DNA of 51,430 nucleotides, from NCBI GenBank assembly GCA_963594575.1, contig CAVBFV010000425.1:1-51430 (forward strand), in the 5' to 3' direction. A program made the translations under genes and the position numbers. Positions 17,565 through 33,024 of this stretch are shown here, in pieces. The DNA comes from Lachnospiraceae bacterium (GTDB lineage Bacteria; Bacteroidota; Bacteroidia; Bacteroidales; Bacteroidaceae). A model generated the notes under the pieces. The model made no database searches, was not told the DNA's origin, and was given only the letters and a program-made list of their open reading frames with translations. Within the stretch, counting starts at the first letter, position 1. Each line of letters opens with the position of its first letter.

Positions 17565-18323
17565 ATGAAAAGAAACTCATTTGAAGAAAGCGAAGTGCCA
17601 TATCAGACACTTGCAAAGTTTGGACTCACCCACGAGATGATAGAAGACCTGCCGATGCACGCATTGGAGGACATCAGTAATGGGCGTCCATCGCCAGTAT
17701 TGCCTGTGAGCATGGAAGTAAACGAGGGTTACAGTATCAAGAGCAGAACACGGTTTGCCTTGGTGAGAATGGCAGATGGAAACGTAGATGTGATGTTCTA
17801 TCCTGTGTTGAAGTATGCCCCATTGGACAAATTCACCAAGGAGCAGCAGGAACTGTTGAAGCAGGGCAAGGCTGTGGTGGCAGATGTGGATATGCCAGAT
17901 GGCACACATGTCAAGGCATTTGTACAGATTGACGGAGAGACCAACCAAGTGATGGCTGTGCCGACACCTGTGATTGGTAGAAACTTGCAGGTGCTATCTG
18001 ACGAACTCAGTCTTGGAGGAACGGAGCTAAAGAGCATCCAAAATGGCGAGGCGCTGACATTTGCCGTAGAAGACGAACCTGTAACAGTAGGCATCGACCT
18101 GAAGAGCGACACAGGCATCCGATTCGCCAACGGTGATGGTGAGCAGTGGCGCAAGGAAGGCAAGCGAGAGTGGGACAAATATACCTTCGGCATCTATGGC
18201 TGTTGGGTAATGGACGATGACGGTAATCTCGACTATGTTCCAGAGGAGGAATATACCGAAGAGTTATGGAATGAGCAAAAGAAAGCTGCCGGAAGACATG
18301 CATCGGCTGTCGTAAGGAAGTAA
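17565..18323 (+). CDS. DUF4099-like ICE protein
   Basis: N-terminal FEESEVPYQTLAKFGLT...GRPSPVLP resembles DUF4099; first gene of the long operon. Confidence 0.65.
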   Translation: MKRNSFEESEVPYQTLAKFGLTHEMIEDLPMHALEDISNGRPSPVLPVSMEVNEGYSIKSRTRFALVRMADGNVDVMFYPVLKYAPLDKFTKEQQELLKQGKAVVADVDMPDGTHVKAFVQIDGETNQVMAVPTPVIGRNLQVLSDELSLGGTELKSIQNGEALTFAVEDEPVTVGIDLKSDTGIRFANGDGEQWRKEGKREWDKYTFGIYGCWVMDDDGNLDYVPEEEYTEELWNEQKKAAGRHASAVVRK

Positions 18324-18349
18324 CGTGAAACATCAAACTTAGGGAAGAA

Positions 18350-18574
18350 ATGAGAAAAGGACCATATTATACAGAAGACATCCTTGTGGATAAGATGCAG
18401 AGCGGTGAATACGGTTGGCTTGATTATGTGAACCATTTCAGTGAGGAATGGCAGAACGAGTATGAGGAATACTGCAAGGAACACGCCCTGTGTATCGGCA
18501 ACGAGAGTGCGGAACAGTTTGTGAAGTACAAGGACGAGCTGTTGGAGCAAGGAATGGAAACAGAGAACGCTTAA
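18350..18574 (+). CDS. Small acidic hypothetical protein
   Basis: 74-aa Glu-rich ORF with operonic spacing. Confidence 0.7.
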   Translation: MRKGPYYTEDILVDKMQSGEYGWLDYVNHFSEEWQNEYEEYCKEHALCIGNESAEQFVKYKDELLEQGMETENA

Positions 18575-18586
18575 TACAATCATGCT

Positions 18587-31118: not shown

Positions 31119-31192
31119 CATTTGGAAATAATCAGATACTTGAAAGTTCCACATCTTGGTCGATTGAAAACGAATAAAAAAGTATTTGAGCT

Positions 31193-31798
31193 ATGATTAA
31201 ATGTAACGTAAGTGTGTGCGGAACCGTCAGCAAGGCTGCAGTGGTTCGCAAAGGAAAGGACGGAATGCCGTTTACTACATATTCCGTAGATGTGGTGGTG
31301 CCAGCCAAGAAAGGTATCAACAAGACGGTGATGGTAAGCTGCATCATGGATGGAGATTGTGCCGAAGCTATCGTTGTGGGCAATCGCATCGATGTGAAAG
31401 GTGTGCTTACCTTCAAGAAGAAAGACGACAACCTGTATTTCAACTTGAAAGGAATCGAAGTGAGCCAGTCTGCTGCAGAAAACAAGGATGGCATCGTGGG
31501 AGATATGGACTTCAAGGGCAAAGTCGGTAAGGATATTGATATGAAGAAGGACAAAAATGGGAAGGCTTTCCTGATGTTTTCTGCTTTCAGTGCAGAGAAG
31601 ATTGGAGAAGAATTTGCTTTTACATGGGTGCGCTTTGTCCGTTTCTCGGAAGAAAAGGAAGAATGGCTTCAGTCGAAAGCCACCATCGAGGCAAAGGGCG
31701 AGTTGGAAATCTCGGTGTATAACGACAGGCTCAACCTGGGCTGCAAGGTGGCGGAGTTGAACCAGTGGGAAAAGAAACCGTATCACCCTAACAATTAG
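31193..31798 (+). CDS. ssb: Single-stranded DNA-binding protein with two tandem OB folds
   Basis: Two repeats of G-x-V-x-K...K-(D/K)-G-x-x-F...G-x-L, resembling SSB folds. Confidence 0.7.
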   Translation: MIKCNVSVCGTVSKAAVVRKGKDGMPFTTYSVDVVVPAKKGINKTVMVSCIMDGDCAEAIVVGNRIDVKGVLTFKKKDDNLYFNLKGIEVSQSAAENKDGIVGDMDFKGKVGKDIDMKKDKNGKAFLMFSAFSAEKIGEEFAFTWVRFVRFSEEKEEWLQSKATIEAKGELEISVYNDRLNLGCKVAELNQWEKKPYHPNN

Positions 31799-31803
31799 CA
31801 AGT

Positions 31804-33024
31804 ATGGCATATTACAATAAGAGTCCACAGAATAATGGCGATGGAAAAAATGCTGAGGACAGAGCCTTGGACACCTTCGCAAACATGATGATAGAGAAGA
31901 TTGAGTCGTTGGGAAGCAAGGACGGATGGCAAAAGCCTTGGTTTACGGAAGGTACATTGAGCTGGCCGAAGAACCTGTCTGGCAGGGAGTATAACGGTAT
32001 GAATGCCTTGCTGCTCACCATGCTCTGCGAGAAGAAAGGCTACGAGTTGCCAGTGTTCTGCACCTTTAACCGTGCAGTGGGTTTGAACTATCAGACCGAC
32101 AAGCAAGGTAACAAGAAGCAGATGGTGGATGCTAATGGCGAGCCGTTGTCCAAGGTTAGCATCAACAAGGGAGAGAAGAGTTTTCCCGTGATGCTGACAA
32201 GTTTCACCATTGTACACAAGGAGACAAAAGAAAAGATACCCTATGACGACTACAAGCGAATGAGTGCTGAGGAGCAGAAGGAGTATAATGTCTATCCGAA
32301 GTTGAATGTGTACCAGGTGTTCAATGTGGCACAGACCAATTTGAAGGAGGCAAGACCTGAATTGTATGCCAAGTTGGAGGCGGAGAACAAGCCCGAAAAG
32401 GCATTGGTGAAGGAAGGTGACATGTATTCGTTTCCTGCTGTTGACCAGATGTTCAAGGAACAGAGATGGATTTGTCCCATCAACATCGAGCACCAGGACA
32501 ATGCGTTCTACTCCATTTCCCGCAACCAGATAACCATTCCAGAGAAGTCACAGTTCAAGGATGGGGAGTCGTGGTATGGAACAGCGTTTCATGAGATGGT
32601 TCACTCGACAGGAGCGGAAGATCAGTTGAACCGTCTCAAACCGCAGTCGGGCTTTGGTTCCGATGAATATGCACGTGAGGAACTGGTTGCAGAGTTAGGC
32701 AGTGCGTTGGTGTGCCAGAAGTATGGCATGACCAAGAATTTGAAAGAGGACAGTGCCGCCTATCTGAAATCGTGGCTCGGCAGTCTGAAAGAGTCGCCAA
32801 GTTTCATCAAGACCACCTTGATGGATGTGAAAAAGGCAACGTCCATTCTCTCACAGAGAATAGATGAAGTGGCATTGGAAATGAAGGAGCTGCAGAGTGA
32901 GGATGTATCGGTTTCGAAAAAAGATAAAGAAGAAAAGGATATGAAGCAATCTGCATCATCAAATGATAATGAGCAGACTGAGGTAGAAGAGGAAAAGGTC
33001 GCAAGGTCTGCATTCCGCCGATAA
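31804..33024 (+). CDS. ardC: ArdC-family antirestriction protein (ssDNA-binding plus zincin)
   Basis: WQKPW, GREYNGMNAL, VFNVAQT, HEMVHSTG and YAREELVAELGS motifs. Confidence 0.9.
   Translation: MAYYNKSPQNNGDGKNAEDRALDTFANMMIEKIESLGSKDGWQKPWFTEGTLSWPKNLSGREYNGMNALLLTMLCEKKGYELPVFCTFNRAVGLNYQTDKQGNKKQMVDANGEPLSKVSINKGEKSFPVMLTSFTIVHKETKEKIPYDDYKRMSAEEQKEYNVYPKLNVYQVFNVAQTNLKEARPELYAKLEAENKPEKALVKEGDMYSFPAVDQMFKEQRWICPINIEHQDNAFYSISRNQITIPEKSQFKDGESWYGTAFHEMVHSTGAEDQLNRLKPQSGFGSDEYAREELVAELGSALVCQKYGMTKNLKEDSAAYLKSWLGSLKESPSFIKTTLMDVKKATSILSQRIDEVALEMKELQSEDVSVSKKDKEEKDMKQSASSNDNEQTEVEEEKVARSAFRR

Follow-up and report, generated by a model that had tools for sequence, protein, structure and literature searches.

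Why do unrelated proteins encoded side by side in one operon end in nearly the same few residues? The question is raised by a 15.5 kb operon on the plus strand (17565-33024) of contig CAVBFV010000425.1, the entire 51,430-base length of which is referred to here as the window and which comes from a fragmented genome assembly of 472 contigs that is 83% complete. An initial annotation of this DNA had proposed that the common C-terminal ending marks a set of proteins delivered into recipient cells by a conjugative type IV secretion system (T4SS). The tail is real, enriched over background, present once per polypeptide, portable between unrelated proteins, and similar to the ends of many Bacteroidales relaxases. 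From these properties we infer recognition of the tail by the T4SS and delivery of its bearers into the recipient.

Four unrelated proteins with a common tail

The tail is carried by four operon proteins that are unrelated to one another (domain names throughout were checked with Pfam and NCBIfam, and all operon genes lie on the plus strand). The Toprim primase (388 aa, 20135..21301, Pfam Toprim_2) ends in ...KEERTSGFRR, the tail TSGFRR being encoded at 21281-21298. A helical, Gly-rich protein of 219 aa belonging to no known family (23213..23872) ends in ...ETTVRSGGMKR, with the tail RSGGMKR at 23849-23869, and the same RSGGMKR, encoded at 29273-29293, ends the polyvalent protein composed of ArdC-N, MPTase-PolyVal and MutS_I domains (805 aa, 26879..29296, Pfam). 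The ArdC protein (ArdC-N and MPTase domains, Pfam; 406 aa, 31804..33024) ends in ...EEEKVARSAFRR, with the tail RSAFRR at 33004-33021. Reduced to its shared part the tail thus reads SGFRR in the primase, SGGMKR in the 219-aa and the ArdC-N/MPTase/MutS_I proteins, and SAFRR in ArdC, that is, a small and then a hydrophobic residue followed by two basic ones, behind an acidic or Gln-rich linker. All C-termini quoted in the initial annotation are present in the sequence as given there.

The similarity is confined to the last 4-7 residues of these proteins. As previously noted, the two identical heptapeptides are encoded by synonymously different DNA (CGC AGT GGC GGC ATG AAA CGA and CGT TCT GGC GGT ATG AAA CGA); no two of the four 3' ends have a DNA word longer than 12 nucleotides (nt) in common, and the 12 nt common to the two identical tails are ATGAAACGATAA. 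Residues -60 to -9 of the four proteins show no similarity to one another in local alignments (z from -1.5 to 1.9). A maximal shared word of 12 nt together with the lack of upstream similarity indicates that the tail is neither a DNA repeat nor part of a shared domain.

In the tail families the last six residues have a net charge of +1.5 to +2.4 and residues -7 to -26 a net charge of -1.5 to -4.4, compared with background values of +0.39 and +0.24, respectively. In positions -20 to -7, 94% of the primase and 92% of the ArdC tails contain at least four Asp or Glu residues, compared with 10% of the background; across six families this acidic block is found in 27-94% of tails, and it is found in no tail of the DUF3945-like and GH73-M23 families described below. 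A hydrophobic residue at -3 or -4, present in 41-91% of tails and 63% of the background, does not discriminate.

Enrichment over background

The strict regular expression S[GA]G?[FM][KR]R$ was run on 2,912 greedily chosen, non-overlapping open reading frames (ORFs) of the genome and matches three of them, all within the operon; the fourth tail protein is missing from this set, having been displaced by a longer overlapping antisense ORF. For a wider sample, two regular expressions were fixed from same-genus genomes with related elements before the test set was examined. In those same-genus elements non-homologous proteins have similar ends, such as RGFHR, RGMHR, TGLHM, SGFKM, KGLKL, and RGIHM. 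The test sample consisted of 80 loci around homologues of the operon protein with a large polyvalent protein associated domain (LPD), from which the 14 loci nearest the window were left out (loci L042-L107 used) and in which only distinct tails were counted; it covers Prevotella, Segatella, Bacteroides, Phocaeicola, Parabacteroides, Alistipes, Muribaculaceae, and others. Operon families are the homologues of 13 operon proteins, and the controls are 3,087 tails from other ORFs of the same loci and from the remainder of the genome.

The tight regular expression, [GSAT][FMLI][KRH][RKMLIV] at the very end, matches 58/353 distinct operon-family tails and 17/3,087 controls, a comparison whose p-value is indicative only. 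Together with the genome-wide count this bears out the enrichment expected from the initial annotation. Arg is the final residue in 44% of operon-family tails, compared with 7% of controls. By family, the matches number 18 of 31 distinct tails for ArdC-N/MPTase/MutS_I, 13 of 29 for the 219-aa protein, 9 of 24 for the primase, 11 of 31 for ArdC, 4 of 18 for DUF4099, 2 of 33 for GH73-M23, and 1 of 51 for M23. There are none among the 19 DUF3945-like, 34 LPD, 12 bPH_2, and 27 SSB-like tails, or among the tails of the two families with signal-peptide-like N-termini (0/24 for the 232-aa and 0/20 for the 226-aa protein).

The exact tail is a narrower matter. A DNA pattern for SGGMKR plus stop finds 10 matches in 401 genomes of the order, two of them the window's own, compared with five for a reversed control pattern. 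None of the other eight ends a real protein: six lie in frames of 7-39 codons, and two are internal to a long ORF, before Trp. The exact heptapeptide is therefore confined to this lineage, and it is the looser pattern alone that generalizes.

Conservation and selection

The counts given above for the four strong families show that the tail is kept in orthologues, as the initial annotation required. Orthologues at 40-60% identity retain it while the linker differs in length and sequence; in the alignments a hypervariable linker separates the folded body from the tail, which reappears as the last residues. In the ArdC-N/MPTase/MutS_I family the linker behind the conserved RVAICDQLE differs by 20-45 aa. 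The 219-aa family has the same organization of conserved body, hypervariable linker, and conserved tail. Its profile, run against 1.84 billion cluster representatives, finds 321 proteins at E ≤ 0.001; among the best 150 of these, 45 hold the core motif, and 34 of the 45 exceed the control 99th percentile of a position weight matrix (PWM) for the tail, which was trained on the four strong families (primase, 219-aa, ArdC-N/MPTase/MutS_I, and ArdC) and then applied to others. Two of the 11 that miss this level end right after the core and are cut off.

Among orthologues the codons of the tail are exchanged synonymously, with Arg encoded by CGA, AGA, CGC, CGT, AGG, and CGG, Gly by all four of its codons, and Phe by TTC and TTT, and all three stop codons follow the tail. 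As judged from the sequences compared, the tail is under selection at the level of the protein.

The initial annotation had counted membrane-active proteins within the set. For the 219-aa protein this description is not established: an AlphaFold2 model from a 21-row alignment is helical and has a mean predicted local distance difference test (pLDDT) score of 48.4, so poor that the fold is unusable, and its tail region (residues 186-218) is of low confidence.

Portability and exclusion

In other elements the tail is found on Toprim, ArdC, MutS_I, DUF4099-DUF3945, and M48-containing proteins and on giant ArdC fusions, which substantiates the idea that it moves between unrelated protein types. 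The giant fusions with ArdC-N, MPTase, and MutS_I domains (L015, L017, L019, and L020, all from same-genus genomes) are 1,300-2,139 aa long, contain long stretches with no Pfam match, and have a single terminal tail. Where ArdC-N/MPTase/MutS_I is fused there is one tail, and where ArdC and MutS_I are split there is one on each, as expected if each polypeptide must be recognized on its own. RefSeq gene calls on a circular record of Parabacteroides distasonis show the same tail pattern. Outside Bacteroidales, ArdC proteins of Rhizobium, Salmonella, Adhaeribacter, and Chryseobacterium plasmids have the tail in 0/4 cases.

The tail-bearing proteins have no signal-peptide-like N-terminus by eye, and the operon's own signal-peptide and membrane families (bPH_2, 232-aa, and 226-aa) yield no regular-expression match, in agreement with the initial annotation that the bearers are proteins without signal peptides. 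By eye and unscored, no such tail is seen on the T4SS genes and the 727-aa coupling protein of a related element in a complete Segatella copri chromosome.

Relaxases and weaker cases

The relaxase is the one obligatory T4SS substrate, and its C-terminus is therefore relevant to any signal of this kind. Bacteroidales relaxases end in sequences such as …KKKRKGLGM, …KKRGMRR, …KRGIKR, and …GGRKL. In PWM scores, 10/14 ends of relaxases of the PF03432 type (or a neighbouring one) exceed the control 95th percentile and 5/14 the 99th; for MobV the figures are 3/5 and 1/5, and for all Bacteroidales relaxase ends pooled 13/19 and 6/19. The best score in the genome outside the window belongs to a relaxase ending in ...KKRGMRR. 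The claim that relaxases carry similar tails holds to the extent that many of their ends exceed the control 95th percentile. For the window's own MobV relaxase (39591..41213, minus strand, NCBIfam MobV), which ends in ...RPKGSKSRKR, the claim stands in part: the end is basic, but its match is weak, the PWM score of 1.57 lying between the control 95th and 99th percentiles.

Four further operon proteins had been named as weaker bearers or have tail-like ends. The DUF4099 protein (252 aa, 17565..18323, Pfam PF13351) has a weak tail, ...ASAVVRK, and 45% of the distinct tails of its family exceed the control 95th percentile. At the level of the phylum, DUF4099 matches occur in 5/121 genomes, and the fetched neighbours end in …KSKGRKM, …SSGRKI, and …SVGLKAM, too few to generalize. 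The DUF3945-like protein (513 aa, 18587..20128) has no Pfam match and takes its name from the Atlas cluster 'DUF3945 domain-containing protein'; it ends in ...HPHMGKGL, a tail-like mixture of Gly, His, and basic residues, and 83% of its 23 distinct family tails exceed the 95th percentile and 39% the 99th. These scores lend moderate support to the DUF3945-like and DUF4099 proteins as putative tail bearers.

The LPD protein (609 aa, 25030..26859; Atlas name) ends in ...EVIQRSR, and the GH73 glucosaminidase plus M23 peptidase (534 aa, 29315..30919, Pfam) in ...SQTMQRK, both of them marginal. Only 21% of LPD and 25% of GH73-M23 tails exceed the 95th percentile, no better than the 30% of the 226-aa signal-peptide protein; the other tail-less families reach 0-11%. 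Each of the two families has its own conserved end (…RGIQ and …LQRK, respectively). Of the weaker cases originally listed, DUF4099 thus fares moderately well, whereas the LPD and GH73-M23 proteins are at best marginal candidates for bearing the same signal. The LPD protein starts at the ATG at 25030 in an ORF that opens at 24931, has a letter-for-letter copy in the Atlas, and belongs to a family whose alignment shows a conserved hydrophobic core. The GH73-M23 protein lacks an N-terminal signal peptide and has one hydrophobic stretch (aa 398-416), located after both catalytic domains.

Interpretation of the tail

With somewhat better than an even chance, the tail may be a C-terminal signal by which a Bacteroidota-type conjugative T4SS recognizes its substrates, through the coupling protein or a substrate receptor, because of its position, charge, portability, exclusion from Sec-targeted neighbours, likeness to relaxase ends, and precedent. 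It would then be a conserved, portable address label placed on a flexible acidic or Gln-rich linker and read by one of these two, and the donor would export the primase, the two ArdC-type anti-restriction and single-stranded DNA-binding proteins, and the 219-aa protein during mating, as it does the relaxase; the DUF4099 and DUF3945-like proteins would probably be exported as well. The T4SS-cargo proposal as first made is upheld as regards the reality, enrichment, and conservation of the tail, its exclusion from signal-peptide proteins, and its likeness to many relaxase ends, while the LPD, GH73-M23, and window relaxase cases are weaker than claimed.

Several observations weigh against recognition by the T4SS. 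The motif is degenerate (GMKR, GFRR, FHRGR, GGGRRR, GIRM, GRHL), and several chromosomal proteins ending in RGG or RRR also score high with the PWM, as does the 226-aa signal-peptide family, with its 30% of tails above the control 95th percentile. The match to relaxases is loose, 4/14 ends of the PF03432 type and 2/5 MobV ends falling below that percentile. Relatives are not independent, so that the p-value of 58/353 versus 17/3,087 overstates the contrast. The T4SS genes of the window differ from those beside the nearly identical S. copri operon, the window's VirB4, TraM, and TraN having only 22-28% identity to their counterparts there, so that either the pairing of tail and machine is uncertain in this case or the contig is chimeric. 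Although distant elements suggest tail flavours (…K[LM] in L021/L022 and …H[LI] in L019/L020), no element-specific flavour is apparent among the 80 closer loci, by eye and uncounted; with no difference in flavour within versus between elements, co-evolution with an element-encoded receptor could not be shown. A complex prediction of residues 95-727 of the S. copri coupling protein (7-row alignment) with the last 45 residues of the ArdC-N/MPTase/MutS_I protein (18-row alignment), run without controls, gave a score of 0.00, which speaks neither for nor against recognition.

A broader version of the same idea is put forward only tentatively and is rather doubtful, namely that the tail is a general label of Bacteroidota-type conjugative T4SSs, marking relaxases and a whole injected 'establishment kit'. 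The kit would include the primase, the ArdC/MutS-I proteins as guards of single-stranded DNA, and the DUF4099 and DUF3945 proteins, and perhaps also the GH73-M23 wall hydrolase, which lacks a signal peptide, and the hydrophobic LPD or 219-aa proteins, which might open the recipient envelope.

A peptide that is basic with one hydrophobic residue would also suit contact with nucleic acid or acidic lipid, and the majority of tail bearers handle DNA. The tail could accordingly be imagined as a docking peptide for the relaxosome, the SSB-like protein, single-stranded DNA, or an anionic membrane lipid, bringing the establishment proteins together at the membrane or on the strand under transfer, with any movement into the recipient a piggy-back on the DNA. 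According to PMC5512222, in the portion of that paper drawn on here, such proteins probably travel bound to the genomic substrate, and the lack of an element-specific tail flavour by eye agrees with docking. However, the 219-aa protein has no recognized DNA-binding domain and yet has one of the best conserved tails, ArdC-N and MutS_I bind DNA already and would have no need of an extra tail, and strict terminal placement with one tail per polypeptide is typical of secretion signals and not of DNA-binding patches; docking is thus considered unlikely. A degradation or stability tag, by which a host or element protease would keep potentially harmful proteins (primase, single-stranded DNA binders, peptidases) short-lived in donor or recipient, is less likely still. 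Basic C-terminal peptides can act as protease tags, for example ClpX C-motif 2 of MuA, the tail, like degrons, is borne by a flexible linker, and several peptidase domains are encoded in the operon. Near-absence from chromosomal proteins (17/3,087) would nevertheless be odd for a host protease tag, the tail is common to relaxases, which must survive until transfer, and it is unlike tags of the ...LAA type.

That the tail might be a by-product of nucleotide constraint, purine-rich 3' ends aiding initiation of translation of the next gene, is very improbable and largely refuted. The coding strand is purine-rich, with positive GC and AT skew, many genes are separated by gaps of 6-20 nt, and the two identical tails have the 12 nt ATGAAACGATAA in common. 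Against this, the tail varies synonymously (CGT/CGC versus AGA, TTC/TTT, all Gly codons), the stop codon varies, operon genes without a tail are packed as tightly, ArdC as the last gene is tailed with no plus-strand gene downstream, and relaxases in other contexts are tailed.

Comparison with known secretion signals

Positively charged C-terminal signals are known on substrates of VirB/VirD4-type and conjugative systems, such as Agrobacterium VirE2, VirF, and VirD2, RSF1010 MobA, and the F-plasmid 'conjutome'. The Agrobacterium consensus is R-x7-R-x-R-x-R, a pattern whose frequency among tails is 0% for 12 of the 13 families and 2% for the other. The present tail resembles the VirB/D4 and conjugative signals in lying at the extreme C-terminus, in being unstructured, net positive, and Arg-rich, and in its occurrence on putative establishment proteins and, as a looser match, on many relaxases. 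It differs from VirB/D4 signals in its length of 4-6 residues, its hydrophobic residue at -3 and small residue at -4, and the acidic block ahead of them. In the F system, positively charged C-termini serve as translocation signals, and cloned ones generally carried Cre across (PMC11288057, in the portion of that paper drawn on here). The machine here is of the Bacteroidota type (TraG/J/K/M/N). A T4SS review of December 2025 contains the word 'Bacteroid' zero times. The literature searched yielded no published protein substrates or signal for Bacteroidota-type T4SSs and no account of the tail.

The Dot/Icm signal of Legionella and Coxiella consists of a Glu-rich 'E-block' and a hydrophobic residue at -3 or -4, and a C-terminal Dot/Icm signal was reportedly described by Nagai in 2005. 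The tail recalls such signals in its disordered end and in the acidic stretch that, in some families, precedes the C-terminus by about 7-20 residues; a hydrophobic residue is found at -3/-4 as well, at a frequency that does not discriminate. It is unlike them in that the final residues are basic, mostly Arg-Arg or Lys-Arg. The tra genes are of the Bacteroidota type, and no homologue of the DotM/IcmSW adaptors was seen, although no search aimed at these was made.

The XVIPCD of Xanthomonas effectors and the BID domain plus charged tail of Bartonella Beps are folded C-terminal domains of about 100 residues, and, as with the tail, they represent a C-terminal element common to otherwise unrelated substrates of one T4SS. 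A domain-type signal of this sort is ruled out here by the dissimilarity of residues -60 to -9 and by the hypervariable linkers. Sorting to the type IX secretion system (T9SS) employs a beta-sandwich C-terminal domain of about 80 residues (Por_Secre_tail) together with an N-terminal signal peptide. This candidate was likewise rejected: no operon protein matches Pfam Por_Secre_tail, and the tail proteins are without signal peptides by eye. In the window only a cargo gene (9373-10356) matches Por_Secre_tail, below the Pfam cut-off.

Iyer, Burroughs, Anand, de Souza, and Aravind described 'polyvalent' early effectors of conjugative elements in 2017 (PMC5512222). In the portion of the paper drawn on here, ArdC-N/MPTase/MutS-I, LPD, primase, and wall-hydrolase proteins are classed as polyvalent and are inferred to enter the recipient with the DNA, MutS-I polyvalent proteins are named in Bacteroidetes, for which delivery is likewise deduced, and ArdC and TraC1 are reported as transferred. 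The present operon resembles those systems, as covered in that portion, in its combination of ArdC-N, MPTase-PolyVal, and MutS-I domains and in the presence of LPD proteins, primases, and peptidoglycan hydrolases beside a T4SS; the architecture itself (ArdcN plus MPTase-PolyVal plus MutS_I, ArdcN plus MPTase, and LPD, both the window and the S. copri element having tra genes) was confirmed. The idea of an injected kit was therefore already in print in general form for ArdC-N/MutS-I polyvalent proteins, as far as that portion goes. There the authors prefer the view that the proteins cross attached to the DNA, and they name no C-terminal tail; the term 'secretion signal' occurs zero times in the main text of the paper.

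Remaining genes of the operon

The tail-less genes of the operon encode a bPH_2 membrane protein (21308..21820, Pfam PF03703) that ends in ...YEITNR and has hydrophobic stretches at aa 24-76, the two proteins of 232 and 226 aa (21801..23194) with signal-peptide-like N-termini by eye, an M23 peptidase (275 aa, 23892..24719, Pfam), and an SSB-like protein (31193..31798) that matches Pfam SSB below the cut-off. The SSB-like proteins of the window and of loci L042-L107 have tips such as …PYNG, …NENPPF/I, and …ELPF, which recall the acidic-aromatic tip of bacterial SSB. NCBIfam and PHROGs scans gave nothing further for operon proteins of no known family. ArdC is the final gene of the operon, and the next ORFs are on the minus strand.

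The element and its relatives

Positions 16690-51430 of the window are colinear, at 92-97% nucleotide identity, with the element of the complete S. copri chromosome, and positions 1-16690 have no nucleotide match in that chromosome's element. This first part contains Bacteroidota-type transfer genes on the minus strand (221-6534), encoding DUF4138/TraN, TraM, a TrbL-like protein, and a VirB4-type TraG, followed by an insertion sequence (IS) with its transposase (6752-8176) and then by cargo genes. The contig is thus either a mosaic or the product of a chimeric join close to the IS.

The cargo block (8583-16520) includes a C25 (gingipain-like) peptidase, a Peptidase_S74 protein whose weak match to a T9SS sorting domain scores below the level set by Pfam, a radical SAM/SPASM enzyme, a GFO/IDH/MocA oxidoreductase, and an ECF sigma factor fused to an outer-membrane beta-barrel. 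Beyond the operon, an AbiEi/AbiEii toxin-antitoxin pair followed by a PP2C phosphatase (35060-37546) lies within the element and is kept in the S. copri copy. The coding strand from 18001 to 32000 has a purine excess, with GC skew of +0.09 to +0.25 and AT skew of +0.19 to +0.29, and the purine excess of the operon is far above that of the remainder of the contig.

LPD proteins 95-97% identical to that of the window (L028-L037) occur in Prevotella merdae, Segatella hominis, S. copri, Leyella stercorea, Prevotellamassilia timonensis, and Bacteroides faecis, an identity suggesting that the element has recently crossed between genera and families. Copies of the element are also found in metagenome-assembled genomes labelled Oscillibacter, Clostridiales, Acutalibacteraceae, Roseburia, and Oscillospiraceae (L052, L065, L090, L103, L105); these Firmicutes-labelled copies are most likely binning errors and not transfer to Firmicutes.

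Significance

Conjugative elements of Bacteroidales spread resistance and fitness genes in the human and animal gut. As read from sequence, the tail would be a new variant of the positively charged C-terminal signals, belonging to a poorly studied secretion system. The polyvalent-protein hypothesis is sharpened by the pattern of one tail per polypeptide. If the wider kit reading were true, conjugation in gut Bacteroidales would resemble the ejection of internal proteins by phages, and the substrates would be readable directly from genome sequence. If recognition of the tail by the T4SS is correct, a tail of 4-7 residues readable from sequence would yield a testable list of the proteins that cross with the DNA, a handle for reporter fusions and for protein delivery between gut bacteria, and a defined recognition step that could be studied or blocked.

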